Numbered from the stretch's first letter, positions 1,963 to 57,087 are shown. The stretch is 64,000 nt of DNA from Nitrospira sp. (GCA_005116745.1 SWDS01000006.1:473708-537707), one strand, 5' to 3'. Numbers and translations: made by a program. The notes: a model not told the origin generated them from the sequence alone.

Positions 1963-2025
1963 GAGAAATAATCGGGTTTTGCTCCTGCTGAGAATGGTGC
2001 GTAGCGCACCAGTGAGGTTTGCTTG

Positions 2026-3237
2026 ATGGATGACATGGATTCGATCACCGCTCTTTGGGAATGGCTCACTCGCGATGTCACGGTTGTCGGTGGGCTTCAG
2101 AGTCCCGTGCTGAGCTGGATTGGTGCTGTGGGGATCTTGGTCCTGTTTCTTTGGCATAGCGCGATGTTCCTCAGAGGTTTGTTCCACATCCAAGGGACGC
2201 TTGCGCGCTTTCACTTGTCCGTCGCGCCTTTGGTATTGGCACGGCAACAGGTGTCCAAAGATTGGCTGGTTATTCCGGCGTTGGCAAAAAAGCGAGCGCG
2301 TCTCGATGTCTCGTCAGAAACGCGACGCGATCTTGACGATCTGCATACATTGGATCAGGCGGTACGGTCAGAACAGGATTTTGCCAGAGACTGGTTTTCA
2401 TACCGCAAGACCCTCGCGGTAGAGCAGTCCGCCTGGTTTCTTGAGCCGACCGTCCATAGTCAGCGTTCCGCCAGTGAGTTTTTCTCGTTCGAATCTCTCT
2501 GCGCAGCCCATCTCAATGTCCGCTTTTACCGGCAGCTGCCCGCTTTCATGACGGGCATGGGGTTGATGTTCACCTTCCTCGCCATCTTGATCGGCCTCAG
2601 CAAGCTCCATGCGAACGGATCGGAGATCGATGGCATCCAAGGACTGATCAACGGCCTCTCAGGAAAGTTTGTGACATCCATCGTCGGCTTGGCCTGCGCC
2701 AATGCATTCACCCTCCTCGAACATTCTTTCTGGCATCGGTTGGACAACCGACACGGGGAGTGCATCTCCCTCCTGGACGAAATGTTTCCGCAGAGGGCTA
2801 CGGACCAACATTCCCAGGGGGGCCCATCGCCGAACGGATCTCCGGTGGCCATCGCCACTCCCATCCGAGGCGACACCGCACATCAGCTTGTCGAGGCCGT
2901 GCAGCAGCGCCTCGGGTCCACCGTCGCAGCGCTGAACTCAGCCGCAGAATCCCTCACGGCGCTGCAATCCAATCATCCACCGATGAAGTTTGATGATTTG
3001 CCAGCGGAGATTGGTCACGAGGTCCAGCGGGCGTTACGACCCATAATGAATCCCATACTGGACGCTATTCAAGACCTCAACCGTTCGATGAAGGAGCATG
3101 CTTCCCCAGTGCGGCTGTCTCAAGCCGAGATCGAAGCGATGTTTCAGGATCTCAGGAATACCACCGCCGCAACGACAGAACCTGCACGTCCGATCCATAA
3201 AGATCGCAATGCAGGAAAACCATCTCGTCTCACCTGA
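2026..3237 (+). CDS. zorA: ZorA-like MotA/TolQ/ExbB-family ion-channel subunit with cytoplasmic tail
   Basis: Three TM segments (IGAVGILVLFLW; LPAFMTGMGLMFTFLAILIGL; GLSGKFVTSIVGLACA), a ZorA-type 'ASEFFSFESL...N.RFYRQLP' segment before TM2, and a helical C-terminal tail of about 170 aa. Confidence 0.75.
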   Translation: MDDMDSITALWEWLTRDVTVVGGLQSPVLSWIGAVGILVLFLWHSAMFLRGLFHIQGTLARFHLSVAPLVLARQQVSKDWLVIPALAKKRARLDVSSETRRDLDDLHTLDQAVRSEQDFARDWFSYRKTLAVEQSAWFLEPTVHSQRSASEFFSFESLCAAHLNVRFYRQLPAFMTGMGLMFTFLAILIGLSKLHANGSEIDGIQGLINGLSGKFVTSIVGLACANAFTLLEHSFWHRLDNRHGECISLLDEMFPQRATDQHSQGGPSPNGSPVAIATPIRGDTAHQLVEAVQQRLGSTVAALNSAAESLTALQSNHPPMKFDDLPAEIGHEVQRALRPIMNPILDAIQDLNRSMKEHASPVRLSQAEIEAMFQDLRNTTAATTEPARPIHKDRNAGKPSRLT

Positions 3238-3252
3238 AACAGCACGGAGGAA

Positions 3253-3894
3253 ATGAAAGGGATGAAGTCGAGCTTTACACTGGACTCGCGTGACAACTCA
3301 GCGGTGGTGACGAGTGGGGTTGCCGATCTTATGACCTCGCTCGCCGTCATCTTCATTCTCTTGCTCGTGGCCTATATGACTCGCGTCGAGGATGGACATA
3401 CCAATTTGGCCAAGAGCCGTGGTACTCCAACGGACAGCACACCGAGAATCGATCCACCTCATCCAGCCCTGGAAACTAAAATGCCAAGCACCCACACGAT
3501 TACGGTGCCGGATACGGCGATTACCTTTGAGTTTGGGAAAAGCACGTTGCTCCAGACGGCCGAGATCTTCTTGTCCGAGACCATGCCACACTACGCCTCA
3601 CTCGTCTGCACGCCTGGAGAGCAAGAAGTAGAAGCCTTTGTGATCGAGGGATACACCGATGATCTGGGTGACGACATACGTAATCTGAGACTCAGTCAGG
3701 AACGCTCTTTTGCGGTGCTGGCCAAAAGCTTGGAAGTGATCCGCGAGAAGCTTCCGTGGGCCTATGAGTGCTTCTTGCAGAAAGCCACCGCGAATGGGCG
3801 TGGGAGGCAGGATCTTTTACGGAATGAGATAGGGCAACCAGCCCGCGAAAAAAGCCGCCGTGTCATGTTCAAAATCCACATGCGCCCCACGTAG
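3253..3894 (+). CDS. zorB: ZorB-like MotB/OmpA-family protein
   Basis: N-terminal TM with conserved Asp (VADLMTSLAVIFILLL); OmpA-C peptidoglycan-binding motifs (ITFEFGKS, IEGYTD, NLRLSQERS, SRRVMFKI); GGAGGA RBS; directly follows the ZorA-like gene. Confidence 0.78.
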   Translation: MKGMKSSFTLDSRDNSAVVTSGVADLMTSLAVIFILLLVAYMTRVEDGHTNLAKSRGTPTDSTPRIDPPHPALETKMPSTHTITVPDTAITFEFGKSTLLQTAEIFLSETMPHYASLVCTPGEQEVEAFVIEGYTDDLGDDIRNLRLSQERSFAVLAKSLEVIREKLPWAYECFLQKATANGRGRQDLLRNEIGQPAREKSRRVMFKIHMRPT

Positions 3895-4814: not shown

Positions 4815-5132
4815 TCAACTCCGAGTTGGTGGAGCCTGGGCCAATTGCTTGGCCAATATACCCAGAGGCGTGCGATAGCACTCCACAAGATCCGTGAACT
4901 CTTCAACCAAATCATGAGTAAACGATGGCCCTGGTTGGACGCTCGCGAAGAGTTGTCCTTCCCGATCGCCTACGGAATTGGTGAGAAACGCGACTGTGCG
5001 GGCTTTCCATTTTTCTATTCGTTCCGTTCCAGCGACGGTGTTCAGGTCTTGAAGAGTCTGTTTCTCAAGCGTCTCCAATTCGTCCATCTGACGTCGAACT
5101 ACGGCAAGGCCCTTCGAAATATCAAGCGACAC
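4815..5132 (-). CDS. Hypothetical protein (105 aa)
   Basis: Fills the gap between pdxA and rsmA on the same strand and overlaps the pdxA end. Confidence 0.7.
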   Translation of the reverse strand: MSLDISKGLAVVRRQMDELETLEKQTLQDLNTVAGTERIEKWKARTVAFLTNSVGDREGQLFASVQPGPSFTHDLVEEFTDLVECYRTPLGILAKQLAQAPPTRS

Positions 5133-6204
5133 GTTTAGTCCGTCCCTTCTTGGTCGAAGTTGTCACCATTCTATTCTGAGCGATCATGGCAGCCAGTTTG
5201 ATGGCCTCAATCAGGCTTCCGGGATCAGCGACGCCTTTCCCGACGATATCAAATGCGGTTCCATGATCCACTGAGGTGCGGATGATCGGCAAGCCCACGG
5301 TGAGATTGACACAGGTGCCGAAGGCGACCAGCTTCAGGGGAATGAGACCCTGATCGTGATAGAGGGCGACGACGCCGTCAAATGCCCCTTTCGCAGCTTT
5401 CCCAAACAGCGTATCAGCCGGCAAGGGATCACTTGCCAGAATGCCCTGTTGTTGGGTGGCGCGTGTTGCCGGGAGGATAATTCGCGCTTCTTCATCACCG
5501 AATAAGCCATGTTCACCGGCATGCGGATTGAGGGCAGCCACTCCTATCCTGGGGCGCTTGATGCCAAACAGTGTCGTCAGCGCCAATTGGGCCAAGCGGA
5601 TCGCCTTTTCAGTCTTGGCTTGCGTCAGCAGTGCCGGGAGATCTCTGATCGCGACATGTGTTGTGACGAACATGATGCGTAACGGTCCGCCCACGATCAT
5701 CATGCCTGATTCGTTCGCGTGGGTGAGATCAGCCAATAACTCGGTATGGCCTGGGTACCGGCAGCCAGCCATATTGATGGCTTCTTTGTTGATGGGCGCT
5801 GTCACCATGCCTTCAATACAGCCGATCTGAGCCAGTTCGACAGCCTTTTTGATAAAGGCGACTGAAGCGGCGCCAGTCTCCGCAGCGGCAATTCCTCGTT
5901 TGAATGTTCGCAGCGGTGTCTCCAGTGGGTCGAGTACCGCTACCGTTCCTCTACGCGGCGCCATCGATTCATGATTACGAACTTGGACTACGTTCAGTTT
6001 AAGCTTCAGTGACTTGATCGTTCGCTCCATGACGGGAAGGGATCCGATCACAACCGACCGACAGACGTTACGCAAGTGAGTACCAGACAGAGCTTTGGCG
6101 ATGACCTCCGGACCGATGCCGGACGGGTCTCCCATCGTGATTCCCAGCAAGGGGAGTTGAGGGGATGAAGAACGTGTGCGAGGTGATCGCGGTTCAGTTG
6201 ACAT
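5122..6204 (-). CDS. pdxA: 4-hydroxythreonine-4-phosphate dehydrogenase PdxA
   Basis: ITMGDPSGIGPE, TAPINKEA, GHTELLA, NPHAGE.G.FG.EE, YHDQGLIP.K, RTSVDHGTAFDI. Start probably ATG 6204. Confidence 0.97.
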   Translation of the reverse strand: MSTEPRSPRTRSSSPQLPLLGITMGDPSGIGPEVIAKALSGTHLRNVCRSVVIGSLPVMERTIKSLKLKLNVVQVRNHESMAPRRGTVAVLDPLETPLRTFKRGIAAAETGAASVAFIKKAVELAQIGCIEGMVTAPINKEAINMAGCRYPGHTELLADLTHANESGMMIVGGPLRIMFVTTHVAIRDLPALLTQAKTEKAIRLAQLALTTLFGIKRPRIGVAALNPHAGEHGLFGDEEARIILPATRATQQQGILASDPLPADTLFGKAAKGAFDGVVALYHDQGLIPLKLVAFGTCVNLTVGLPIIRTSVDHGTAFDIVGKGVADPGSLIEAIKLAAMIAQNRMVTTSTKKGRTKRVA

Positions 6205-7198
6205 AGAGATGTACCGTATAACCGATATAGAACACCGCTCCGGCGGCGAGCAGCCACGGTCGCCACCGTCCACCGATCAGAATCTGCAGGAGGCAGAATC
6301 CCACGGCCAGCACGGCTAGGATCATGGTGGTCAATGCCGATGATGCAATGACCCACTCGGTTCCGATCAACCCCAGCGCAACCGGGAAGGTGCCTTGAAA
6401 GACCATGGCACCCGTAACATTGGCCACGGCGAGCCGGTCTTTCTTGCGATAGAGCCAGAGAAAACTATTGGACATCTCCGGTAGCTCGGTAGCGAGTGGC
6501 GCGATCAGCAGCGCCAAGATCAACGGCGACATGGCGAACAAGCCGGCCATCGATTCTGCAGCCATGACAAATAAATGGGCGCCCATGATCAATCCACCTA
6601 AACCCAAGAGGGATTGAAATCCGATCATGGCATAGGACGGCGTGGCTGCGTGCTTGTCGAAAATCAACGGCTCCAGCTCACCACCCCCTTCTTCCTCACC
6701 AGCGGGTGCGAATTTGAGCTTCATGTAGTAGATATACAAGCAGATCAATACACCGGCCGCGATGAGGTGAATCAGTTTGGACGGCACGAAGGCGCATCCC
6801 AAGGCGATAAAATACCCGATCATAAAAAACGTGAGGTCTGTTAGTACTTCATGATAGTTGAGCTGGAATCGGGCGGTCCGCTTGCCGGCTCGTGCATAGA
6901 GCAGCAGCAGCACAGCCAGGATGGGTAGCACCAGTGTGCTGAGCATGAACGGCGCGCCTAAGATGGCACCTAAGCCAACCTCAGCTTCTTCAGGGCTATC
7001 ACCGAAGAAAATCGCAATGATCGGGATCGAGGTCTCAGGCAGGGTTGTGCCGATGGCGGCAAAGACACTACCAACGGCACCCTCGGAGATACCACGCCGC
7101 TTGCCAAACCATTCAATGGCGTTCGTAAAGAGTGCACACCCACCAAGCGTGACCGCGACGGAAACGAGAAAGAGGAGCACGTAGTACAGCACGGTCAT
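6194..7198 (-). CDS. Ca2+/cation antiporter family (CaCA, YrbG-like) membrane protein
   Basis: Two alpha-repeats (AIGTTLPETS; APLATELPE) and about 10 TM helices; start overlaps the larC stop (ATGA). Confidence 0.88.
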   Translation of the reverse strand: MTVLYYVLLFLVSVAVTLGGCALFTNAIEWFGKRRGISEGAVGSVFAAIGTTLPETSIPIIAIFFGDSPEEAEVGLGAILGAPFMLSTLVLPILAVLLLLYARAGKRTARFQLNYHEVLTDLTFFMIGYFIALGCAFVPSKLIHLIAAGVLICLYIYYMKLKFAPAGEEEGGGELEPLIFDKHAATPSYAMIGFQSLLGLGGLIMGAHLFVMAAESMAGLFAMSPLILALLIAPLATELPEMSNSFLWLYRKKDRLAVANVTGAMVFQGTFPVALGLIGTEWVIASSALTTMILAVLAVGFCLLQILIGGRWRPWLLAAGAVFYIGYTVHLYVN

Positions 7199-8412
7199 GC
7201 TCGGCCTCGCGAAGCTGTGATTCTCGTTTTCTTGCGTCCCTGTCGATAGGCCATCAGCGCATCCTCCATTACTGTCTTGAGCGGCTGGCCGGTTCGTTGC
7301 GCGATGGCTTTGCAGTCCTCATATTCGGGGGCTGCTTTTTCCCATCCGGCGCCGACCTCGGCTACTTTCATACGAATGACTCCGCCTGGCGTCGTGACGG
7401 GGACGAATCGCCTGGTGAGGACCTGTCGGCGTACTTCATGAAGTCGCACTCCGAGCGTGGTCGTTTCCTGGAAGAGGACCTCAATCACGGCATCCGTCCG
7501 GTCTTCAGTAGCTAGGCAGCTCAGCAGAATTCCTGGCCGACTTTTCTTCATGACGACGGGAACCAGCACGACATCAACAGCACCGACCTGAAAGAGCTGC
7601 TCCATGATGTATTCGTAGGTCTGTGGACTGAGGTCGTCAAGATTCGTCTCAATCTGTATCATCGGCTCGGTCGGATTGGCCGCCGACGTGGACTCTTCCT
7701 CCACAAACAGGCGCAAGGCATTCGGCCATCCGTCTGGATCCTGGTCGCCGGCTCCGTAGCCCACGGCCGTACTCTTCATGGTCGGCATCGGGCCGAATTC
7801 AGACGCCAATGTTCGAAGCAGCGCAACCCCGGTGGGGGTGGCAAGCTCACAACGCGGACCGTCGGCGTAGATCGGAATTCCCTTCGCCAGCGCCGCCACC
7901 GCAGGCCCTGGAACCGGTAAGAGTCCGTGTGAGGTTTGAATCGACCCGGCTCCAACATTGATCGGAGAGGCGGTGATTTGGGTGGCGTTCAAGAGATAGC
8001 ACCCCAGCACGCCACCGACAACATCGATAAACGAATCCATCACTCCGACTTCATGAAAGTGAACATCTTTTGGATCGACACCATGCGCCACTCCTTCGGC
8101 CTCAGTCAGTCGATCAAAGACCGACTGGCTCCGTTCCTTGACCGGGCCTGGCAACGTGCTGTCGACAAGGATTTTTCGAATGCGAGAGAGGGTCAGCGGC
8201 CGTTGAAATCCCTGTTGAACGATCACATCGACTTTGATTGCCGGGAGCACGCCACGATGTACCTCGCGCTTCCGCAATGTGTAGCCGGTAAGCTTGAGTC
8301 CTTTGAGGCCCTTGACCAAGTCAGTCCATGGTAACCCTGCGCTCACTAATGCGCCCAGGACCATATCTCCACTGACTCCGGAGAAACAATCGAAATGCAA
8401 ATGACGGCCCAT
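7195..8412 (-). CDS. larC: Nickel pincer cofactor biosynthesis protein LarC (Ni insertase)
   Basis: FDCFSGVSGDM.LGAL, VHFHEVG..DS..DVVG, PVPGPAV, ELATPTG, IETNLDD, KKSRPG, ETTTLGVR, PEYEDC. Confidence 0.95.
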   Translation of the reverse strand: MGRHLHFDCFSGVSGDMVLGALVSAGLPWTDLVKGLKGLKLTGYTLRKREVHRGVLPAIKVDVIVQQGFQRPLTLSRIRKILVDSTLPGPVKERSQSVFDRLTEAEGVAHGVDPKDVHFHEVGVMDSFIDVVGGVLGCYLLNATQITASPINVGAGSIQTSHGLLPVPGPAVAALAKGIPIYADGPRCELATPTGVALLRTLASEFGPMPTMKSTAVGYGAGDQDPDGWPNALRLFVEEESTSAANPTEPMIQIETNLDDLSPQTYEYIMEQLFQVGAVDVVLVPVVMKKSRPGILLSCLATEDRTDAVIEVLFQETTTLGVRLHEVRRQVLTRRFVPVTTPGGVIRMKVAEVGAGWEKAAPEYEDCKAIAQRTGQPLKTVMEDALMAYRQGRKKTRITASRGRA

Positions 8413-8633
8413 TCAGTTCCTTACATGCGATGCGCAAAATGACCGGACATCTTACCGAAGGCGTGGACGAACGGCAATCGCTGGTTCATTCTCGACGCTT
8501 CGTTGACAGCCTAGGGGTGCTATGGTATCCCCCTAAGAGTGCGGTTGAGTTGCATCGTGCCGAACACGACGCCCGCCACTCATGAAAGCATGGTTCAGGG
8601 TTTTTGTTGAAATTGTCACATACGCTCCATTAC

Positions 8634-9134
8634 ATGAGACGTCTGCTCGGGTTGCTCACCCTGTGTGCTTCTCTGATGGCCGTATTCCCGGCAGAGAGCC
8701 TCTCGAAAGAGAAGCCGCCCCGCGTTCCCAGGCCTGAGCCTCAGCTCAAAATTGTCGGCCTTAACATTGCCCCGACGCCGTATGCGCTGGGCAACGGGCC
8801 TCTTCAGTTTTCCGTTACAGTCCAGCTTCCGAAAGAAGTGGATGGATCCACGATTTTGGAGGTGACCTCGCTCATTAGTTCTCCGTCGAAGAGCTCGCTT
8901 CGATTTCTCACGTATCGACAGCCCATCCAAGTCTCTCTAGCCGTGGATGGGGAGACAGGACGATCGAAGGTGTCTGTCGAACTTGCGTGGGATGGCCAGG
9001 ATCACCGAAAGCAACTCGCCGGGGTGGGCATCTATTCGTATGAAGTGCGGACAAAGTTGTTGGCCAATGGAGAAAAAGGGTTACGTACCGTGATGGTTGC
9101 CTGGCCAAAGCGAGGCTTACTGGAAGTGAAATAG
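8634..9134 (+). CDS. Exported protein with a FlgD-like Ig segment
   Basis: Signal peptide MRRLLGLLTLCASLMAVFPAESLS; 'LAWDGQDHRKQLAGVGIYSYEV' resembles the FlgD Ig motif. Confidence 0.75.
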   Translation: MRRLLGLLTLCASLMAVFPAESLSKEKPPRVPRPEPQLKIVGLNIAPTPYALGNGPLQFSVTVQLPKEVDGSTILEVTSLISSPSKSSLRFLTYRQPIQVSLAVDGETGRSKVSVELAWDGQDHRKQLAGVGIYSYEVRTKLLANGEKGLRTVMVAWPKRGLLEVK

Positions 9135-9157
9135 AGGCGCATTCATTTCTCCCGCGC

Positions 9158-9919
9158 CTATTTCTCTACTCCCAACATATTGATCCGATGTGCGAGGCAG
9201 GCCGCGCCGAATCCGTTGTCGATATTCATCACGCCTACACCCGCAGCGCAGGAATTGAGCATCGTCAGCAGCGCAGCGACTCCCCCGAAGCTCGCACCAT
9301 AGCCTCGGCTGGTTGGCACGGCAATGACCGGGCAGTGGACCAACCCTCCCACCACGCTCGGCAGGACACCGTCCATACCAGCTGCGACGATCACGACCTT
9401 CGCATCGAACAGCCGATCTCTCTTTCCGAGCAGTCGATGGATACCCGCAACCCCGACATCGTACAGTCGCTCGACGTGGCTACCCATCACTTCAGCCGTC
9501 ACACGAGCTTCTTCCGCCACGGGCACGTCCGCCGTTCCTGCGGTCACTACGAGTATATGCCCATGTTGTTTCTGCTTGGAAGCGTGAATCGCCACCAGAC
9601 GTGCATCAGGATAGTACTGTGCTCGCCGATCCAGGCGGCGAATGGCTCGCCCAACCGATGGGTTGGCACGAGTGGCAAGAAACGGGCCTTGTTTCTTGAT
9701 AAGCGCCCGAGCGATGGCGATAATCTGCGCGATGGTTTTCCCTTCACACAAGACGACCTCGGGGAACCCTTGTCGTAATGACCGATGATGATCGACTGAG
9801 GCAAAGCCCAGATCCTCAAAAGGTAGTGACTGCAGGCGCTGAAGTGCCTGTTCCACCGTGGCATCGCCTTGACGGACTTGCTGCAACAGCCGTTCGAGTC
9901 CTTCCGGATTCATGTCCAC
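9158..9919 (-). CDS. larB: Nickel pincer cofactor biosynthesis protein LarB
   Basis: DHHRSLRQGFPEVV.CEGKT, TAGTAD.PVAEEA, DVGVAGIHRL, AGMDGVLPSV, VPTSRGYG, NIDNGFGAA. Confidence 0.95.
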   Translation of the reverse strand: MDMNPEGLERLLQQVRQGDATVEQALQRLQSLPFEDLGFASVDHHRSLRQGFPEVVLCEGKTIAQIIAIARALIKKQGPFLATRANPSVGRAIRRLDRRAQYYPDARLVAIHASKQKQHGHILVVTAGTADVPVAEEARVTAEVMGSHVERLYDVGVAGIHRLLGKRDRLFDAKVVIVAAGMDGVLPSVVGGLVHCPVIAVPTSRGYGASFGGVAALLTMLNSCAAGVGVMNIDNGFGAACLAHRINMLGVEK

Positions 9920-10932
9920 TCCTTCTCTGATTTTGCATCCCGTTCCATCAAATCAGTCACGGCCTTCCTACAAGACTTATCGTCATACAGGACGGAATGA
10001 ATTTCTTGTATGATCGGCATATCGACCCGATGGCGCTGGGCCAATGTTAATGCGGCACGTGCCGTCCGAACGCCTTCAGCGACAGCCTGCATGCCTGCCA
10101 AAATTGTCTCCAACTTTTCTCCCTGGCCGAGGCGAACGCCTACCGAATGGTTTCGGCTGAGTGTGCCCGTACAGGTCAGGACCAGATCGCCGACCCCGGA
10201 CAGTCCATAAAATGTGCGCGGATCGGCTCCCATGGCCATGCCCAGCCTGACGGTTTCAGCCAGGCCTCGAGTAATGAGCGCCGCGCGGGCATTGAGTCCG
10301 AGGTTCAGGCCATCGATCACACCGGCAGCCAGTGCCATGACATTTTTCAGGGCTCCGCCGAGTTGGACGCCGATGACGTCTGTATCGGCGTACACACGAA
10401 ATACAGGCGTCATCAAGGCACCCTGAAACTGCCGCACGAGCTGTTCATCGGAGCCAGCCAAGCACAGGGCCGTGGGTTTCCTCATGCTGAATTCGGAAGC
10501 GAAACTGGGTCCAGACAGCACCATGAGGGAGCGGTGCATGGACGGCGATAACTCGTCCTCCATAACCTGGGTCATCAATTTGGCCGTGGTTTCTTCTATG
10601 CCTTTGGTTGCGCACACGAACGGTAGGGGCTTTGAGATGTAGGGTGCCAACTGATGCAACACGGATCGGGTTCTGTGTGAAGGAACGGCAAGCAGAATCC
10701 CATCACAGCCATGTACGGCGTCAACCAGTGAGGAAGTGGCCATCAAATTTGATGGAAGAGGGACACCCTTCAGGAAGACAGGATTTTCATGAGAGGTGTT
10801 GATGGCGTTGACGACGTCGTGTTCATAGGCCCAGAGGCAAACCTCCAGACCCTTTTCGGCCAGATGTTTCGCCAAGGCTGTGCCCCAGGCGCCAGCTCCA
10901 ATAACACCGAGCTTATTGATCGTGGTTGGCAT
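9910..10932 (-). CDS. gpsA: NAD(P)H-dependent glycerol-3-phosphate dehydrogenase
   Basis: GAGAWGTALA, ATKGIE, LSGPSFA, GGALKNV, GVGDLVLTC...SRN, AEGV.T. Confidence 0.97.
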   Translation of the reverse strand: MPTTINKLGVIGAGAWGTALAKHLAEKGLEVCLWAYEHDVVNAINTSHENPVFLKGVPLPSNLMATSSLVDAVHGCDGILLAVPSHRTRSVLHQLAPYISKPLPFVCATKGIEETTAKLMTQVMEDELSPSMHRSLMVLSGPSFASEFSMRKPTALCLAGSDEQLVRQFQGALMTPVFRVYADTDVIGVQLGGALKNVMALAAGVIDGLNLGLNARAALITRGLAETVRLGMAMGADPRTFYGLSGVGDLVLTCTGTLSRNHSVGVRLGQGEKLETILAGMQAVAEGVRTARAALTLAQRHRVDMPIIQEIHSVLYDDKSCRKAVTDLMERDAKSEKEWT

Positions 10933-11079
10933 AAGCGATTCTGCCTCATGACGAAATCATCATCCACTCATTGAGGAGGGCGAATTATAGGAAGGCCCTC
11001 GAGAGCCTGTCAATGAATGGAGTACGCGCATACGACGTGTCACTCATGACCTATTCCCCAACGAAGATGCGACTGTGGG

Positions 11080-11095
11080 TGGCATGTAGTTTGCT
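11080..11095 (+). promoter_or_regulatory. Sigma54 promoter
   Basis: TGGCATGTAGTTTGCT, a near-perfect TGGCAC-N5-TTGCW match about 87 bp upstream of the beta-barrel gene. Confidence 0.7.
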
Positions 11096-11181
11096 GAACC
11101 TTCTTGTGAGCGTCCAAGAAAGGACTTTGCGATCATCCAGTCCACGACAGAGTTGGAGATGGGCAATCCGGAGTGGTTCTC

Positions 11182-11952
11182 ATGAAACAACGATGTCCTG
11201 CGTGGGTTTACACATGGATCTTCACTGCGACGTTGTTGCACGCGTCGCTGACATCGGTTCTGACCATACCGAATGCCTATTCAGAAATGTACGTTGGAGG
11301 TCAAATCGGTACCACATTGTTCGGCGACAACAACAAGCTCACCAGAGTCGACCTGACCGATCTTGGTGGTCCTCCAGGATCCACGCTCACTCCTCCCGGA
11401 TCGATGTCAGGTCGTGATTTGGCCAGCTCCCCAGTACTAGGCGGGAAAATCGGGTATTACTTTCCGCAAGTGCCATGGCTTGGTCTAGAGCTGGAAGGCT
11501 ACTATACGACTCCTCACATTGAGCAACAATCGACAAGACTCAGCTTTATTCCTGGATCGATCTTGAATGGCGTCGGTCAGATAGCTGGTGGAGATACAAT
11601 AAGTGGTTTTTCAGGGGATCTTTTTCGAGTCATTACGGTTGCTCCATTTAATCTCATGTTGCGGTATCACAAGACAAGGTTTCAACCCTATGTTGGGATT
11701 GGTCCTGGAGTATTTATGGCCCGGGTCAAAACCATAGTATCGGGATTTGAAGGGACGCAGAGTTCAACCAGGGTAGGTCTGAACGTCAAGCTCGGTGGCG
11801 AATACTTTTTCACACGACACATCTCTGGATTCGGAGAAGTCAGATATAACTACACGACTTTCAATTTTGACGCCAACGACGCAGGAGCCTTTGGATTTAC
11901 AGCTATTTATAATCCGGTCATTTTTTCCTTCGGAGTCAATTACCACTTCTAG
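11182..11952 (+). CDS. Outer-membrane beta-barrel protein (OmpW/OmpA-TM like)
   Basis: Signal peptide, alternating beta-strand pattern (YVGGQIG, QPYVGIGPG, GFGEVRYNY) and terminal FGVNYHF; GGAG RBS before ATG 11182. Confidence 0.88.
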   Translation: MKQRCPAWVYTWIFTATLLHASLTSVLTIPNAYSEMYVGGQIGTTLFGDNNKLTRVDLTDLGGPPGSTLTPPGSMSGRDLASSPVLGGKIGYYFPQVPWLGLELEGYYTTPHIEQQSTRLSFIPGSILNGVGQIAGGDTISGFSGDLFRVITVAPFNLMLRYHKTRFQPYVGIGPGVFMARVKTIVSGFEGTQSSTRVGLNVKLGGEYFFTRHISGFGEVRYNYTTFNFDANDAGAFGFTAIYNPVIFSFGVNYHF

Positions 11953-12000
11953 CGTGTCAGCTCTCCCTCTGGCATCTTTAGGACATTTCCATGTATGTAG

Positions 12001-12384
12001 GTGGCGTACAGGGAATACTCAAGGATGCAAGTCTGTCCTGCCTGCAGCCGGTCACAACCGGAGATCAACCGTTTCTGTATCCAATGCGGTCGGCAACTCG
12101 CCGACCGATCGGATAGTCGGTCCGCTACTCAACCCCCTAGCACTTCGGCACCAGACCAACTCAATCTCGCGGTACTCTACGGAATGGTCGTTGTGCTGAT
12201 CCTGGCCGTCTTGTTCCCTCCATGGGAGACACCGCCGACGCAGACCCCGGAGTTTCTCGGTCTGCATTTCATCCTCTCTCCTCCAACTCCGGACGGTGTC
12301 GTAAGCCGCATGCTTCTAACCATTGAGCTCGTTACAGTCGCGATTGCCGGCATGTATGGCGCGTTTCTGTTCAGAACAAAGTGA
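12001..12384 (+). CDS. Zinc-ribbon membrane protein
   Basis: CPAC...FCIQCG zinc ribbon plus two TM segments. The start may be the internal ATG of MQVCP. Confidence 0.75.
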   Translation: MAYREYSRMQVCPACSRSQPEINRFCIQCGRQLADRSDSRSATQPPSTSAPDQLNLAVLYGMVVVLILAVLFPPWETPPTQTPEFLGLHFILSPPTPDGVVSRMLLTIELVTVAIAGMYGAFLFRTK

Positions 12385-12454
12385 TTGGGCAATAGTCATT
12401 CGTCATTGATCAGAATAAATTCGTGTCCGTTCATCGATTGACCAATGACGTTTC

Positions 12455-13255
12455 TCAGTCCAATGCGAGCGTGAGACACTTGGCGGACCCACCGGATTTC
12501 ATGAACTCATCGAGCTGAACCGGGTGGGTTTCATATCCTCGCATACGGAGCCAGGTTTGAGTGGTGGGACACCCCGTAGGAAGAACGACATGTTTCCCGA
12601 CACAAACGGCATTGCAGGCGAACTGTAGGGCTTCATCTTCTGGAACGGCAAGACGCAGCTTGTCAGGAATCCGTTCTGCAATCGCTGCCTGGCCATAGCG
12701 ATCAAAGGCAGCAGGGAAATAGAGGAGCTCGCCGCCGCTCAAAGAACAGAGGCAGGTATCCAGATGATAGAAGCGGCTGTCGACAAGTTCGAGGGGAATG
12801 ATTTCTCGGTGAAAGCGCTCACTAAGGATTGGGAAGACGCGGATATCCGATCGTTGTCGATAGCCACCGAACCAGTATTCTGAAAAACCCAGGAGATCGC
12901 CTGCTCCCTCAAAATACAGCTCGTGGTCTACTGTGACCACGTCATAGCCCTGCTTACGGAACCAATCTTCAAAATGAGCTTCTTCAGGCTGACGCTCAGG
13001 GTACCGGAAGCGACTCACGACGGCGGTTCGTCCCGCCACGATGCCGGCATTGGCCGTAAATACGAGGTCGGGCAACCCAGGCATGGGAGTCATGTGTTCA
13101 AGCACGACGCCCACGTCTTTTCCGAGGACGCGCATCAATTCATGCCACTGTCGCACCGCCCGTCCGTGATCGACGCGATTGGTACGCCGCATCCAGGGAT
13201 TGATCTCATACTCAATCCCAAAAAAATCCGGAGGACAGACGAGAAGGCGGCTCAT
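12455..13255 (-). CDS. Amidinotransferase-fold arginine dihydrolase (ArgZ/AgrE N-terminal domain homologue)
   Basis: CPPDFF.IEY.INPWM, PDLVFTANAG, SRF...ERQ.EE, FEGAGD, FYHLDTC, FACNAV, EF.KSGGSAKCLTL: the motifs of the cyanobacterial ArgZ N-domain, including the catalytic His and Cys. Confidence 0.88.
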   Translation of the reverse strand: MSRLLVCPPDFFGIEYEINPWMRRTNRVDHGRAVRQWHELMRVLGKDVGVVLEHMTPMPGLPDLVFTANAGIVAGRTAVVSRFRYPERQPEEAHFEDWFRKQGYDVVTVDHELYFEGAGDLLGFSEYWFGGYRQRSDIRVFPILSERFHREIIPLELVDSRFYHLDTCLCSLSGGELLYFPAAFDRYGQAAIAERIPDKLRLAVPEDEALQFACNAVCVGKHVVLPTGCPTTQTWLRMRGYETHPVQLDEFMKSGGSAKCLTLALD

Positions 13256-14496
13256 GTGGACTTCCCCAACAGCCTGGCAAGTTCCGACAGAAACGATGCC
13301 GCATCCATGACGAGGCCGACCGCCTGAAAGCTCCCTCGGTCGGCCAGCTTGGTCGGGACCGACGGGTTTACGTCGACACAGACAGTGGGAACGGTTGCCG
13401 GCAGAAGATTGCCCGTCGCCACGGAGTGGAGTGTCGAGGCGACAAGGAGAGCCAGCCCAACGCCAGGGATCAAGGCGCGCATCGCGCGTTGTGCCAGAAC
13501 GGAATCCGTGATCACTCCGGGCAATGGCCCATCGTCACGAATCGTTCCGGACATGACCACCGAGACGCCTTGGCGGACACAGGCTGCCATGATTCCTTGC
13601 TTGATCATTCCCGACGTGACCGCCGTCTCAATACTTCCAATCGTCCGAATGCGGTTGATGGTCCGCAAATGATGTTCATGGCCATGTGGGACTGCGCGCC
13701 CTGCTGTGAGTCCGTAGCCGAGTGATGTGCCGAACAGATCAGCTTCCATGTCATGTGCAGCCAGCGCATTCCCACAAAACAGGATATGAATAAACCCCTG
13801 TTCGATCAGCCAGGTCAGCGCCTCTCGCCCACCGGCATGAATGATGGCTGGTCCACCGGCCAGCAAGACGTGTGAGTCGCTCTGCCGCTCTCTGTGTCGC
13901 TCTCTCATTTGACGCATTCGAGTCGCGACGTCGGCGATGATATGAGCATGGGGCCGTTCAGCCGAGACCTGAGACTCCATGAACCCAAAGACGTCTCGTT
14001 CGCGTGGCCGCTGGAGGGGAATGACACGCACCCCCTCTCGACCGATCACGATGTGATCCCCACGACGAACTTCGTTCATCGGCACGGCCTGGGCGGCGGA
14101 GCCAGCCTCATTGACCACGATCGCGAGATCCATTTCGATTCGATCCACGTCTAGCCATCGACCGTTGAGCCGGATCTGGGTGGGGAGGTGTGTCGTGGCA
14201 TAGAAGTCATCGGGTAACACCCCGTCGGCAGGCGCACAGTCGGTGCGGCAGTCGGCCTCACGTTCGATCGAGGCGCCGTGTGGCTGAATCGCCTTCAAAA
14301 TGTCGTCTAGAAGCGTTCTTGAAGCAGTTTGGATCCGGATACGGGCATGAGACGCTTCTTCCCTTGTCTTGCCGATGTGCACGTCCTCCAGGTCGAAGGT
14401 TCCTCCCATCATCAGGATGAGATCGAGCACCTTAGCGAGTACGAGAGAGTCGATGATGTGTCCTTGAAGACACACGCGTTCTTGGTAGTGGTTCAC
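13252..14496 (-). CDS. TIGR00300 / LOR-SDH-conserved-region protein (AgrE C-terminal, ornithine cyclodeaminase-like)
   Basis: LQGHIIDS, APADGVLPDDFY.TT, MDLAIV, F.FM.S.VS.ER, GGPAIIH.G, GNALAAHD.E, G.IRDDGPLP, LHSVATGN, VCVD.NP..P.KL.DRGS; ATGA overlap with the downstream gene. Confidence 0.9.
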   Translation of the reverse strand: MNHYQERVCLQGHIIDSLVLAKVLDLILMMGGTFDLEDVHIGKTREEASHARIRIQTASRTLLDDILKAIQPHGASIEREADCRTDCAPADGVLPDDFYATTHLPTQIRLNGRWLDVDRIEMDLAIVVNEAGSAAQAVPMNEVRRGDHIVIGREGVRVIPLQRPRERDVFGFMESQVSAERPHAHIIADVATRMRQMRERHRERQSDSHVLLAGGPAIIHAGGREALTWLIEQGFIHILFCGNALAAHDMEADLFGTSLGYGLTAGRAVPHGHEHHLRTINRIRTIGSIETAVTSGMIKQGIMAACVRQGVSVVMSGTIRDDGPLPGVITDSVLAQRAMRALIPGVGLALLVASTLHSVATGNLLPATVPTVCVDVNPSVPTKLADRGSFQAVGLVMDAASFLSELARLLGKST

Positions 14497-14563: not shown

Positions 14564-15610
14564 CTAAGCGTTCGCGGGGGATATTTTCATCAGTTCTCGG
14601 AGTACGCTCGTGGCATAGGCGCCGGGAGGGAGGCTGAAAGAGAGGGTAAGGACATCACCGCTGAGTGACCATTCAAGTTCAGTGAGGGGGATGCGGAGCG
14701 CTCTGCGTTCGCCACGGAATCCACAAGCTTTCGCGGCGGCGACGAGACTCTCTTTACTTGTGCCTGCTTCGGCAATGACAGCTTCTTCGATTCCACCAGG
14801 CTCGCCACTCGCCCAGGACACGCGTGAGCCGAAGAGGATGCCGGTCGGACTGATCTCAAAACGATCTGCGCGAGGCTGTTCGCTTTCAGCATTCTCAACT
14901 TGAAAACAGGCGCCATTCTCCAGTTTTGTCGCCCAATCACCGACGAATAGGCGATCGATCTGATCGATGCGCCGGGCGAGGATGCGATTGAATAAAAACG
15001 ACTGATAGGTGTTGAGGTACCAGATGCGCTGGGACCGATTCATCCTTTCTCGCCGCCGCGCATCGTGGAGGAGTGCGGCGCCAACTTCGTAGTTATCGCC
15101 CTTCTTCCCTTGTCGCTGAGGGCCAAAGTAGTTGGGCACGCCGCGTGCGCTGAGTTGTTGAAGAACAGCCTGCACGGTTTCAGCCGCGTGATCCGCGACA
15201 TTGCGGATGACTAAACGGAAGTGATTGCCAGAGTGATGACCGGTTCGTAAGCGATTACGATGGCGCCCGAGGATCTGAAGGCTTAGAACCATGTCATCGA
15301 TCTTCAGGGCCGACACCTGTTCCATCGTGACTCCTTGCAGCGACACCATCTGAGTGGTGACGGCTCGTGAATCTTTTAATCCGGCGACCCCGATGGCTTG
15401 AGCTCTCACACCCAATGTAGAGGAAAGTTGGCGAACAAGATCCGGCGTGGAGAGGCCTCGCTTAGTGATCGTGATGTACAGATGTTCACCTTCCCCGCAA
15501 GGAAGGTAGAGCGGCCGTTCCTCGACCTGAAAGTCTTCGGGCACGGCGCGGATTTGTCCACCGATTCCAGGCACGTTGCTAGTGAGGAAGGGCTCGATTG
15601 GTTGCGTCAC
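14564..15610 (-). CDS. truD: tRNA pseudouridine(13) synthase TruD
   Basis: PEDFQVEE, GEGEHLY, AGLKDSRAVTTQ, GN.F, PNYFGPQR.G, LPPGAYAT..LREL. Confidence 0.96.
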   Translation of the reverse strand: MTQPIEPFLTSNVPGIGGQIRAVPEDFQVEERPLYLPCGEGEHLYITITKRGLSTPDLVRQLSSTLGVRAQAIGVAGLKDSRAVTTQMVSLQGVTMEQVSALKIDDMVLSLQILGRHRNRLRTGHHSGNHFRLVIRNVADHAAETVQAVLQQLSARGVPNYFGPQRQGKKGDNYEVGAALLHDARRRERMNRSQRIWYLNTYQSFLFNRILARRIDQIDRLFVGDWATKLENGACFQVENAESEQPRADRFEISPTGILFGSRVSWASGEPGGIEEAVIAEAGTSKESLVAAAKACGFRGERRALRIPLTELEWSLSGDVLTLSFSLPPGAYATSVLRELMKISPANA

Positions 15611-17231: not shown

Positions 17232-17358
17232 GGGGGAGAAATCATACGAGCGGAGTTGATTGGTCGTCAACGAATCAACTGCTGTCCAACGCGCTATCTT
17301 GACCGGGGTTTCTTGTTACGACTATTCTGCCTCACGGAGAGCACTCAATGACGTACCT

Positions 17359-18114
17359 ATGCGCCTAACTATTCTCGGTTCTGGAACCAACGTGCATCCC
17401 ACGCGTGCCGCAGCTGGGTATCTGGTACGGACGGATCAATCGATCATCTTGGATTTTGGCCCTCGCACGTTGATGAACCTGATCAAAACCGGTGTGAATC
17501 GGCACCAGATCACGCATATTCTGTTTTCCCATTTTCATGCCGATCACTTTTCTGATTTCATCACCTTCTTTTTCGATGCGATCATCTATGCCAAATACGG
17601 AGGAGGGCATCGCCCAGGGATGACGCTGATTGGCCCGAAAGGCACGATCCGTCTTCTCCGGTCGATCATGCGCAGTTTCCCGAGTTTTGACTCAGCTCCA
17701 TTCCGCGTGACCTTGCGCGAGGTATCCAGTAAGCCGTTCATGATCGGAGAAACTCGTATCGTTCCCAAACCAGTGGTCCACGTACCAGACCTCTCGTCCG
17801 TCGGTTATCGGATCGAGTACCGTGGGAAGGTGATCGTGTATTCTGGAGATACGCAATATTGTGACGCGCTTATTCGACTGTGCACAGATGCCGACTTGGC
17901 CGTGCTCGATTGTTCATTTCCAGCAAACAAGCCTGGCCCCGCCCATCTGCACGCTGGACAGTGTGGTCAGGTGGCGAAGAAGGCCGGGGTGGGACAACTT
18001 GTCCTCTCGCACTTCTATCCGATTACGGATCGATACGACGTGAGAGGCCAAGCGGCTGAGCAGTATGGTGGCAAGATTTGGAAGGGGAAGGATCTGTTGA
18101 CGATTCGAGTCTAG
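17359..18114 (+). CDS. MBL-fold metallohydrolase (RNase Z-like)
   Basis: MRLTILGSG, LDFGP, SHFHADHFSD, YSGDT, DCSF, HL, LSHFY. Start at ATG 17359. Confidence 0.9.
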   Translation: MRLTILGSGTNVHPTRAAAGYLVRTDQSIILDFGPRTLMNLIKTGVNRHQITHILFSHFHADHFSDFITFFFDAIIYAKYGGGHRPGMTLIGPKGTIRLLRSIMRSFPSFDSAPFRVTLREVSSKPFMIGETRIVPKPVVHVPDLSSVGYRIEYRGKVIVYSGDTQYCDALIRLCTDADLAVLDCSFPANKPGPAHLHAGQCGQVAKKAGVGQLVLSHFYPITDRYDVRGQAAEQYGGKIWKGKDLLTIRV

Positions 18115-45999: not shown

Positions 46000-46570
46000 G
46001 GCGGTTTCAAGTTCCAAGTGCAACGGGTGAATGGGAGCGGAGTTCCGCATAAACTTCCAGGGGCGTCGCAAAATTAAGACATTTTCGCGGGCGCGTGTTC
46101 AGCCGATGGGCAATGGCGTTCAACTCGCGCTGCGTGTAGCCCGACAAGTCCGTGCCCTTCGGCAAGTACTGGCGCAGCAACCCGTTGGTATTCTCGTTGG
46201 TGCCGCGTTGCCAGGGACTATGCGGATCGGCAAAAAAGATCTGAAGCGCACGCCGCTGAGCCAACTGCTCATGCTCGGCCATCTCTTTGCCCCGATCGTA
46301 CGTCAGGGTTTTGCGCAGTGCGGCGGGTACGTGCCGGAGTGTCTTCGTGAAGCCCTGGCGGGCACTCGTCGCATCCGTCCCCTCCATCCGAGCTAGGATG
46401 ACCAGGCGCGTCGTCCGCTCGACCAGCGTACCGATGGCCGACGTATTGCGAGCCCCCTTGAGGAGGTCGCCTTCCCAGTGGCCGGGCACCGTGCGGGTCG
46501 CCACCTCGGCTGGACGTGCGTCAAACCTTAGCCCAGTTGGGCCGGTCGTGTTGCACTTGGAGTTAGAACC
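46000..46570 (-). mobile_element. Internally deleted IS30-family element
   Basis: IR at 46000-46024 (GGCGGTTTCAAGTTCCAAGTGCAAC) and a related opposite IR at 46550-46570 (GGTTCTAACTCCAAGTGCAAC on the minus strand); only the 3' part of the transposase lies between them. Confidence 0.8.
46007..46528 (-). pseudogene. IS30 transposase, C-terminal DDE fragment
   Basis: RPAEV..R.VPGHWEGD, LVER.TR, TLTYDRG.EM, FADP.SPWQRGTNENTNGLLRQYLPKG, LN.RPRKCL. The N-terminal HTH is missing; the ORF-track TTG start at 46651 lies outside the element. Confidence 0.9.
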
Positions 46571-46602
46571 TAAGCAGGTATTTATCGTCAGTTTGAAAGA
46601 AG

Positions 46603-46645
46603 AGTGGGGGGTGAGCGTCCGCCGAATGCGGAGCTCACCCCCACT
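46603..46645 (-). terminator. Intrinsic terminator of tal
   Basis: Stem AGTGGGGGTGAGC...GCTCACCCCC(C)ACT followed by CTTCTTTC on the minus strand, immediately after the tal stop. Confidence 0.75.
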
Positions 46646-46654
46646 AGACAACTA

Positions 46655-48855: not shown

Positions 48856-49659
48856 TCAACGAAGGTTCAAAACATCCATCATATCGTATAAACCAGGCGG
48901 TTGGCGGACGACCCACCTGGCGGCTCGCAGGGCTCCGATGGCGAACGTATCCCGGCTACTGGCCCGATGGGTGACCTCGATTCGTTCCCCCATGCCACCA
49001 AACAGAATCGTATGGTCGCCGACGATATCACCGGCGCGAATAGTTTGTATCCCGATTTCTGTTTTCGTTCGTTCTCCGATCAGTCCCTTGCGGGCATAGA
49101 CTCCGACTTGGTCCAAGTTTCGGCTCACCGAACGGGCGAGGACTTCAGCAATCTTGAGGGCCGTGCCGCTCGGCGCGTCCTTTTTCAGCCGGTGGTGGGC
49201 TTCAATCACTTCGATGTCGTACTCGTCCCCAAGCGTTCTGGCCATTTCGCCGATGACTTTGCAGATTAGGTTGATCCCAACACTCATGTTCGGAGAAAAG
49301 ACACAGGGAATTTGCTGGGCCAGCAACCTCAGCTCATCGAGTTGAACAGCCGAAAATCCTGTGGTTCCGATAACCATGGCCCGTCGATGGCGAGCAACGA
49401 TCCGCATATGTTCCAGTGTCGCCGAGGGCGATGAAAAATCGATCACAGCCTCCCCTCGCTCCATCAGGATGGAGAGATCATCCGTGATGGGAATGCCGGC
49501 ACGACCTGAGGCTGCAGTCTCGCCCGCATCTTCACCCAACGCCGGATGCCCTGTCCCCTCTAAGGCCCCTGCCAATGTCAAAGCCGTTGAATCTCGGATT
49601 AGTGACACTAGTCGGCAACCCATTCGGCCGGCTGCACCCGCTACAATGATCTTGATCAT
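48856..49659 (-). CDS. dapB: 4-hydroxy-tetrahydrodipicolinate reductase
   Basis: GAAGRMG, IDFS.P, IGTTG, SPNMSVG.N, E.HHR.K.DAPSGTA, RAGDIVGDH, HRA.SR..FA.GA. Confidence 0.97.
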   Translation of the reverse strand: MIKIIVAGAAGRMGCRLVSLIRDSTALTLAGALEGTGHPALGEDAGETAASGRAGIPITDDLSILMERGEAVIDFSSPSATLEHMRIVARHRRAMVIGTTGFSAVQLDELRLLAQQIPCVFSPNMSVGINLICKVIGEMARTLGDEYDIEVIEAHHRLKKDAPSGTALKIAEVLARSVSRNLDQVGVYARKGLIGERTKTEIGIQTIRAGDIVGDHTILFGGMGERIEVTHRASSRDTFAIGALRAARWVVRQPPGLYDMMDVLNLR

Positions 49660-49687
49660 CTTGTCGTATACCTAGATCTTGATTAAG

Positions 49688-50566
49688 TTAGACCAACGCC
49701 GCATCCTTGAGGACGCGAATCAATTTCTCTCGTGTGTCCTGTGCCATTGGGCAGAGTGGTAAGCGCAATTCTGGGTCAATCTTTCTCATGAGTCCTAACG
49801 CTTCTTTGACCGGAATGGGATTGGTCTCATAGAACAACGCGGCAAAGAGGGGAGAGAGCTTAAAGTGAATCCGTCGCGCTTCATCAATTCGTCCCTCGGC
49901 AAAGGCCTTCACAAGAGCGGCCATTTCCATCGGTACGATATTGGCGGTTACGGTAATCACGCCCTTTCCGCCGACTGCCATCATCGGTAACGTGAGGGAG
50001 TCGTCGCCGGCTAGCACGGTTAGGCGGTCACCGCACATCTGCACGATATCTGAGGCCTGTTGGACCGAGCCACTCCCTTCCTTGACTCCAACGATTGTCT
50101 GAATGGCTGAGAGTCTGGTGATCGTTGAGGGGAGCATGTTGACCCCAGTACGACCGGGGATATTGTACAGGATTATGGGGAGGTCCACGGCCTCTGTAAT
50201 CGCCTTGTAGTGTCGATAGAGTCCTTCCTGGGTCGGCTTATTGTAGTAGGGAGTAATAAGCAACGCGCCGTCAGCTCCGGCCTGCTTTGCATGTTTTGTG
50301 AGGGTGATGGCTTCTTCTGTGCTATTCGAACCCGTTCCGGCAATCACGGGTACCCGACGACGGACCACCTCAACCGTCAACTCAATCACCCGAGTATGCT
50401 CGCTATGAGAAAGGGTAGCCGATTCACCAGTGGTTCCACAGGGGACAATGCCGTTGGTGCCATTGGCGATCTGCCATTCGATCAACTCGGCCAAGGCGCG
50501 CTCGTCGACCTTGCCCTGTCGAAATGGCGTCACAATTGCGACAAGAGATCCAGTAAACATACTCAC
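49688..50566 (-). CDS. dapA: 4-hydroxy-tetrahydrodipicolinate synthase
   Basis: A.VTPF, CGTTGES.TL, GTGSNST, TPYYNKP, YNIPGRT, GVKE, NPIPVK. Confidence 0.97.
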   Translation of the reverse strand: MSMFTGSLVAIVTPFRQGKVDERALAELIEWQIANGTNGIVPCGTTGESATLSHSEHTRVIELTVEVVRRRVPVIAGTGSNSTEEAITLTKHAKQAGADGALLITPYYNKPTQEGLYRHYKAITEAVDLPIILYNIPGRTGVNMLPSTITRLSAIQTIVGVKEGSGSVQQASDIVQMCGDRLTVLAGDDSLTLPMMAVGGKGVITVTANIVPMEMAALVKAFAEGRIDEARRIHFKLSPLFAALFYETNPIPVKEALGLMRKIDPELRLPLCPMAQDTREKLIRVLKDAALV

Positions 50567-51834: not shown

Positions 51835-51880
51835 CGCTTAGTTCCTAGTGTTAATCCGATAGTCTCAGGCCCAACACCGC

Positions 51881-52108
51881 TTATCGTATTCCGATCGGCT
51901 GCGATGGAGGGAGGTCCGTCTCATGGCCTCCCAGGGTAGGGTCCGGTTCAGCCGACTCTGTTGCCTGCCGCTCTGCCTCGATGGCATGTTGCCGTTTCTG
52001 TTTGGCGATCGTAGGCGCAACTCCGATGAGTTCCGGGGCGACCGGTGTTCCCACCACCCCGCAAGAAATCAGAAGCCCTGCCGATGCGATTACGAGGAAT
52101 GCTCTCAT
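51881..52108 (-). CDS. Small lipoprotein (LptM/YifL-like position, upstream of lysA)
   Basis: Lipobox LIS-C, then GVVGTPVAP; conserved argH-lipoprotein-lysA position; overlaps the argH stop. Confidence 0.7.
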   Translation of the reverse strand: MRAFLVIASAGLLISCGVVGTPVAPELIGVAPTIAKQKRQHAIEAERQATESAEPDPTLGGHETDLPPSQPIGIR

Positions 52109-54731: not shown

Positions 54732-54739
54732 GGTGGATC

Positions 54740-56934: not shown

Positions 56935-57087
56935 GACGACGTATCCCCTTAAGAAAGAAGAAAAAGCTAGCACAGGGGCAATGGGAAGAGCAATAAGCGG
57001 AGCAGCGGGAAATTACTGTCAGAAGTCGCGTGCACGACATTCTCCAATCAGCTATTACGCGATAGGTGGTATCCTCCTGTTCCGAGT

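Follow-up and report, generated by a model that had tools for sequence, protein, structure and literature searches.

Cyanobacteria convert arginine to proline with one fused protein of about 700 residues, ArgZ (Sll1336, 6juy) or AgrE (Alr4995, 6lrf-6lrh), in an overall reaction that yields proline, CO2 and three NH3 (PMC8262935). For the second half of such a route, a 2026 paper (PMC13524815), citing Desguin 2025 (Int J Biol Macromol 330:147799), describes an ornithine cyclodeaminase whose non-covalently bound cofactor is a nickel-pincer adenine dinucleotide (NPAD) and which was discovered with LarE as the genomic anchor. In the LarB/LarE/LarC pathway of Lactiplantibacillus plantarum, LarB carboxylates and hydrolyses nicotinic acid adenine dinucleotide (NaAD) to pyridinium-3,5-biscarboxylic acid mononucleotide. 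About 15% of genomes, many of them cyanobacterial, have larB, larE and larC without larA, and the Synechocystis 6803 genes yield a functional cofactor (mBio 2024; PMC11796402). Those cyanobacteria carry ArgZ/AgrE.

Here we describe a locus in 64 kb of Nitrospira sp. DNA (GCA_005116745.1, SWDS01000006.1:473708-537707; ‘the window’ is this whole stretch, as analysed), in which a gene of family TIGR00300 adjoins a gene for an ArgZ-type arginine dihydrolase, and larB and larC lie 3-5 kb from that pair. Judged from its genes, the locus probably serves to convert arginine to proline in two steps, the second of them nickel-pincer (NPAD) dependent, and it also holds two of the three cofactor genes. 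A first-pass annotation had presented this as a candidate system; the system is not a new one, since nickel-pincer dependence of the family was reported in 2025 and the family is already curated in NCBIfam. The enzymology and the cofactor-client relationship are thus already known; what is new is the Nitrospira host, the split and reversed genes, and the placement of the lar genes in housekeeping operons.

The TIGR00300 product (hereafter the cyclodeaminase) passes the equivalog cut-off of its family (466.1 vs. 410.8 bits, residues 7-408 of 414), and NCBIfam release 20 names that family nickel-pincer-dependent ornithine cyclodeaminase. The first-pass annotation had mentioned annotations of the family as dependent on the nickel-pincer nucleotide (NPN); the name and the score bear out the pincer and the activity, but the published cofactor is NPAD, a dinucleotide, and not NPN, the mononucleotide. 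The protein is built from an N-terminal LOR/SDH-N domain (PF04455 Saccharop_dh_N, 6-103) followed by an ArgZ-like C-terminal Rossmann-type domain (PF21571 ArgZ-like_C_1st, 105-187; PF21570 ArgZ-like_C_2nd, 189-406). Its relatives in the PDB are 3c2q, from Methanococcus maripaludis (E 2e-92; 314 bits, residues 87-408), and the C-terminal half of AgrE/ArgZ (E 1e-90). An AlphaFold2 model (pLDDT 86.4) gave AgrE as the best Foldseek match (TM-score about 0.78), then ArgZ and 3c2q; the next structural neighbours were NAD-dependent deoxyhypusine synthases, and the fold is therefore of a dinucleotide-binding, amine-oxidising kind. A Pfam scan of the protein found no match to the OCD/mu-crystallin family. 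The classical NAD+-dependent ornithine cyclodeaminase of that family (mu-crystallin, Pseudomonas putida) carries out the same overall reaction (PMC3497308) but is unrelated in fold and family to the Nitrospira protein, whose nearest fold outside its own family is deoxyhypusine synthase.

The histidine motifs that had been pointed out in the TIGR00300 protein (IIHAGG, NALAAHD and HGHEHH) are all present in the translation. We collected 80 homologous loci with a 17-sequence cyclodeaminase profile, taking one genome per GTDB species. H220 and D249 are kept in 80/80 of these loci, H248 and H273 in 79/80, H276 in 78/80, and an RDDGP motif (R320-D-D-G-P324) in 78-80 of 80. These His/Asp residues and RDDGP are invariant in 17 diverse cyclodeaminase representatives, and AgrE aligns with the same histidines. 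The Nitrospira protein thus shares with the published NPAD-dependent cyclodeaminase (family structure 3c2q, from M. maripaludis) its family, three-domain build and His/Asp motifs, and it comes from a genome with larB and larC; it differs in that it comes from a bacterial nitrifier rather than an archaeon, is known here from genes alone, and is paired with a separate, coupled arginine dihydrolase, with the lar genes 3-5 kb off. We presume it to be an NPAD client.

The partner gene encodes a 266-residue protein of the guanidino-group-modifying fold, with about 50% identity to the N-terminal domain of ArgZ (6jv0/6juy; E 2e-69). It keeps the residues aligned to ArgZ N71, E118, H168 and C264 (6juy/6jv0), in the motifs VFTANAG, FEGAGD, FYHLDTC and AKCLTL. 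Asn71 we take to be required for dihydrolase activity; the ArgZ N71S mutant (6juz) reads VFTASAG where the Nitrospira protein reads VFTANAG. The ATG of the dihydrolase gene overlaps the stop codon of the cyclodeaminase gene by 4 bases (ATGA), which suggests translational coupling of the two, and because of this overlap the two enzymes may well act in sequence, like the fused ArgZ/AgrE. Nitrospira thus has homologues of both activities, with catalytic residues kept, but as two genes in reverse order, cyclodeaminase first. There is no fusion here: against NF052231 bifunc_ArgZ they reach 272 and 372 bits, where 1025 are required. The dihydrolase had been called ‘upstream’, which is true of the pathway but not of the operon, where it lies downstream of the cyclodeaminase.

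The larB and larC genes are clear homologues of those of L. plantarum, with key residues conserved. The larB product scores 288 bits against NF033503 (cut-off 175) and can be aligned from end to end with LarB of L. plantarum (8soq/7mj0; E 7e-69), keeping the nucleophilic Cys of the LNSCA motif. The larC gene is a single full-length open reading frame (ORF) with both LarC1 (TIGR00299, 186 bits; cut-off 90) and LarC2 (NF052512, 147 bits; cut-off 50) domains, as in a nickel-inserting cyclometallase, and it scores 428 bits against PF01969. As a single ORF it is unlike larC of L. plantarum, where a frameshift is required to link LarC1 with LarC2. The Nitrospira LarC matches that of Moorella thermoacetica (cryo-EM entry 12bi) at E 2.5e-98. 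Its H110, H118, H120 and H162 correspond to M. thermoacetica H108, H116, H118 and H160, and replacing three of these four nearly abolishes activity in M. thermoacetica; H70, H72 and H226 of that protein are not kept, and H53 only approximately. In 10 Nitrospira genomes larB has no stop codons (ratio of nonsynonymous to synonymous substitution, dN/dS, about 0.05-0.09) and larC is intact (dN/dS 0.10-0.17), so the lineage maintains both, under purifying selection; these values are similar to those of neighbouring housekeeping genes, and dS is saturated. The view that an NPN client enzyme resides here, put forward in the first-pass annotation, thus gains from the NCBIfam name, the published family, the intact and constrained larB and larC, and the ArgZ-type partner.

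The cyclodeaminase, dihydrolase, larB and larC genes that the first-pass annotation had picked out were all recovered, at the coordinates given and on the minus strand, by an ORF listing with NCBIfam and Pfam profile searches. These genes and their neighbours are as follows.

rsmA: last gene of the conserved order larC, antiporter, pdxA, small ORF, rsmA
5122-6273, minus strand: pdxA (TIGR00557)
6194-7198, minus strand: CaCA-family cation antiporter (Na_Ca_ex; PF01699, 93 bits)
7195-8412, minus strand: larC, 405 residues (TIGR00299, NF052512, PF01969)
8604-9134, plus strand: opposite-strand hypothetical ORF, about 166 residues from an internal Met, with a hydrophobic N-terminus
9158-9919, minus strand: larB, 253 residues (NF033503)
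9910-10932, minus strand: gpsA, glycerol-3-phosphate dehydrogenase (NF000942, 432 bits)
10984-11013, minus strand: promoter-like site, TTGACA, 18-base spacer, TATAAT (12/12 consensus)
11173-11952, plus strand: outer-membrane beta-barrel gene (PF13505, 53 bits)
12001-12384, plus strand: small zinc-ribbon ORF
12455-13255, minus strand: ArgZ-type arginine dihydrolase, 266 residues, closest to the ArgZ/AgrE N-terminal domain
13252-14496, minus strand: TIGR00300-type ornithine cyclodeaminase, 414 residues (TIGR00300, 466.1 bits)
14564-15610, minus strand: truD (PF01142)

It had been noted that larC and larB lie on the same strand as the nearby TIGR00300 gene, and so they do. The further proposal of one coherent nickel-dependent module holds in part: two of the three cofactor genes, the presumed client and the dihydrolase are present, but they fall into three units split by opposite-strand genes. 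The plus-strand genes at 8604-9134, 11173-11952 and 12001-12384 break up the minus-strand series. In the same orientation as gpsA, larB shares 10 bases with the end of that gene. The larC stop overlaps the antiporter start by 4 bases, and the run goes on with pdxA, a small ORF and rsmA. Because of these overlaps within units and the opposite-strand genes between them, we read the locus as three putative transcription units (cyclodeaminase-dihydrolase; gpsA-larB, of which gpsA is probably the first gene; and larC-antiporter-pdxA-rsmA) rather than as one operon. The lar genes thus sit inside housekeeping operons, and cotranscription with such genes suggests that the supply of cofactor would be constitutive. 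A role of the antiporter in handling nickel, or another cation required to make the cofactor, is speculation; the antiporter scores below the TIGR00367 cut-off.

Nitrospira-type genomes share this arrangement. One complete Nitrospira genome (4.2 Mb) and other assemblies have the same series of truD, cyclodeaminase, dihydrolase, small ORF, outer-membrane protein, gpsA-larB, small ORF, larC, antiporter, pdxA, small ORF and rsmA, including the gpsA-larB adjacency and the run from larC to rsmA. Within a range of 10 kb, larB and larC were found in 12 of the 80 surveyed loci and in three further Nitrospira loci, always in identical order; no Nitrospira-type locus of sufficient length lacked them. 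The dihydrolase gene has a wider reach: it lies directly downstream of the cyclodeaminase in all Nitrospirota loci with downstream sequence and in 19/61 other loci, with none after the cyclodeaminase in one locus labelled Nitrospinota (L031). Thus, the cyclodeaminase-dihydrolase pairing is a recurrent, independent association, and the proximity of the lar genes is a single lineage-specific arrangement, inherited by descent. The idea that the cyclodeaminase and lar genes are neighbours in general was considered and rejected, the 80-locus survey being negative outside Nitrospira-type genomes.

The best cyclodeaminase homologues (82-92% identity) come from Nitrospira metagenome-assembled genomes. 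The window sequence itself is present in a biofilter metagenome (99% of sampled words), and related strains are present in drinking-water metagenomes. An Rfam search found no riboswitch or other RNA element near the genes.

The main rival explanation is plain NAD use. Here the cyclodeaminase would work with ordinary NAD+/NADH, and the nearby larB and larC would reflect lineage synteny and serve another client, for example a racemase of the LarA type or an aldo-keto reductase of the NphT type. Several findings weigh against the NPAD route at this point, and most of them would suit this rival. The main support for this rival is that AgrE, the nearest relative with a solved structure, was crystallised with ornithine and NAD+ in a ternary complex (6lrg), so an AgrE-type pocket accepts plain NAD. 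The distant structural neighbours noted above are NAD-dependent as well, and the lar genes lie outside the cyclodeaminase operon. No larB or larC was found within 10 kb in the deeper Nitrospirales loci (L022-L031) or in any of about 50 loci from other phyla, so that none of about 60 loci outside Nitrospira-type genomes has lar genes near the homologue. Since lar proximity is limited to Nitrospira-type genomes, the link between family and lar genes rests mainly on published work, and for the NPAD dependence of the family that work is represented here by the citing paper (PMC13524815) and by the NCBIfam name. Other pincer clients also exist, as in a Clostridium butyricum locus with larB-larC-larE, an ECF transporter and an aldo-keto reductase (PMC13524815).

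The missing larE belongs among these counterpoints too. Scans of the 64 kb with NCBIfam and Pfam found no larE or larA among the ORFs, in agreement with the first-pass annotation, which had noted no larA-type racemase or epimerase; nor did they find an NphT-like aldo-keto reductase or a nickel transporter. A tblastn search with C. butyricum LarE likewise found no larE in the window, and none was found in any of 80 related loci by a scan for the SGGxDS motif and tblastn, which returned NAD synthetase only. In contrast to L. plantarum, then, these 64 kb of Nitrospira hold no lar operon, and the reported end product that its client would use is the dinucleotide NPAD. Finally, larC, larB, gpsA, the dihydrolase and the cyclodeaminase are covered by metatranscriptome contigs of related strains (85-95% identity), which is consistent with transcription in situ, but such contigs can contain DNA and their depth measures expression poorly.

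Against plain NAD use stand the curated equivalog name, whose cut-off the protein passes, and the published NPAD-dependent cyclodeaminase, as cited in PMC13524815. Cyanobacteria with ArgZ/AgrE keep larBEC without larA. The structure with NAD+ can be read in another way: NPAD is itself an adenine dinucleotide, and if the crystallised protein was made in a host without lar genes, as we assume, its vacant NPAD site should take up NAD. The 6lrg complex also shows the position of the dinucleotide in the AgrE fold. AgrE and the M. maripaludis homologue reportedly gave cyclodeaminase activity when expressed in Anabaena, in 2019 work ascribed to Burnat and colleagues, and this would fit a need for a lar-proficient host. 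By our own estimate, a randomly placed larB would fall within 5 kb of the pair in a genome of about 4.2 Mb with a chance of about 0.2%, a figure that is suggestive, but it concerns one event, noticed after the fact. Taking both sides together, we consider use of ordinary NAD unlikely.

A different rival accepts the NPAD cofactor but not the physiology. The pair might act mainly to turn ornithine into proline, as proposed for methanogens, or the partner might be a DDAH-like enzyme acting on methylarginines or citrulline. This rival draws on one further point against the arginine route, namely that the dihydrolase falls below the NCBIfam cut-offs: it reaches 274 bits of the 450 required by NF052232 Arg_dihydro, and the Mycobacterium-type dimethylargininase model (DDAH-Mtb) scores nearly as high, 243 bits, itself below a cut-off of 300. 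The protein is therefore named ArgZ-like by homology and not as a curated equivalog. In addition, 42/61 loci outside Nitrospira-type genomes have no adjacent dihydrolase, so the cyclodeaminase works alone in many lineages, and argD, argF, argG and argH in the same window could supply ornithine. On the other side, the similarity to the N-terminal domain of ArgZ far exceeds that to solved DDAH structures (only about E 1e-13), Asn71 is kept, and the dihydrolase gene overlaps that of the cyclodeaminase. We regard this alternative as quite improbable, a shade more so than plain NAD use, and return to the two-step NPAD route.

In that route, the ArgZ-type dihydrolase would first convert L-arginine to L-ornithine, CO2 and two NH3, as its homology and conserved catalytic residues predict. 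The TIGR00300 enzyme would then cyclise ornithine to L-proline and free a third NH3, as its family and its homology to AgrE and M. maripaludis 3c2q suggest, holding NPAD non-covalently if it follows the family literature. By analogy with NAD-dependent cyclodeaminases and LarA, we infer a hidden redox cycle for this step: the pyridinium ring would take the C-alpha hydride to leave an imine, the delta-amine would attack, ammonia would leave, and the hydride would return to give proline. The classical ornithine cyclodeaminase and the Nitrospira enzyme probably share this logic. LarB and LarC would build the pincer together with a LarE, which would have to be encoded elsewhere in the genome.

Some further observations concern the lar genes and their relatives. 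We considered whether the 745 bases separating larC from larB are the remains of a larE and ruled this out, as the gap holds an opposite-strand ORF and no PP-loop motif. That ORF (8604-9134) has no Pfam or NCBIfam match, other Nitrospira have an opposite-strand ORF of 119-183 residues at the same position, and it does not belong to the pathway. The 12/12 sigma-70 consensus that precedes gpsA by about 50 bases is a pattern match only, the count of such sites in the region not being above shuffled expectation. In 7/61 loci, labelled Dormibacterota and Acidobacteriota (e.g. L050, L051, L059 and L068; nadE ORF at 3863-5593 of L051), the cyclodeaminase homologue has a gene for glutamine-dependent NAD synthetase (nadE) immediately upstream. 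NaAD is a substrate of both NadE and LarB, and this adjacency may be one lineage's synteny.

Among plasmids, the C. butyricum megaplasmid NZ_CP128833.1 carries larB, larC, larE, ECF-type metal transporter genes and an aldo-keto reductase (L086, 5995-12604), a cluster that looks like the NphT-family arrangement of PMC13524815. The plasmid collection gave only one distant match, a cyclodeaminase-variant homologue (30% identity) on a 2.6 Mb replicon of Acetoanaerobium noterae (NZ_CP154629.1). A LarE homologue lies 680 kb away from it on the same replicon (L087, 12001-13023; L088, 10001-10810), a single anecdote and no test of co-occurrence, and no larB or larC was found within 10-12 kb of either gene.

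Elsewhere in the window, a complete arginine biosynthesis run (argD, argF, argG, argH, then lysA, dapA and dapB; 48856-56973, minus strand) lies about 40 kb from the predicted arginine breakdown genes. An argF-argG fusion or frameshift was considered there and rejected: argF is intact (54740-55717), and the 589-residue argG ORF is an upstream in-frame extension over argF. An IS30-family transposase ORF (46007-46651, 214 residues), beside a transaldolase gene, matches model positions 115-267 of 267 and is probably a truncated insertion-sequence remnant. At 2023-3894, a MotA/ZorA-like membrane protein (far under the cut-off of the Zorya ZorA models) is followed by an OmpA-like peptidoglycan-binding protein, and the position of this pair is kept in other Nitrospira. 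The beta-barrel gene (11173-11952) is conserved in position among relatives but has almost no cover by contigs of related strains, unlike its neighbours; this points to a surface protein that evolves fast, with low expression as the alternative. Finally, 17260-18114 encodes a protein of metallo-beta-lactamase fold that has a weak likeness to phosphodiesterases degrading cyclic nucleotides (126 bits; cut-off 400) and whose homologues in other Nitrospira are labelled Anti-Pycsar_Apyc1 (Pfam).

Reading the sequence alone had thus recovered a real cofactor-client relationship that was itself only recently published, and the locus extends it to Nitrospira, a nitrifier with a key place in water treatment and in soils. 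Our searches gave no open paper that connects Nitrospira with the ArgZ/cyclodeaminase route, nor did this organic-nitrogen route come up in those of the open nitrifier literature. As a tentative and rather doubtful proposal, lar genes beside a split ArgZ-type pathway may keep the cofactor always available in Nitrospira, allowing a nickel-dependent release of three ammonia per arginine, from external arginine or from reserves, that would feed comammox nitrification or ammonia-oxidising partners. If the two-step route is right, Nitrospira would turn arginine into proline and three ammonia in a nickel-dependent manner, which would bear on the nickel demand of nitrifiers and on their use of organic nitrogen.

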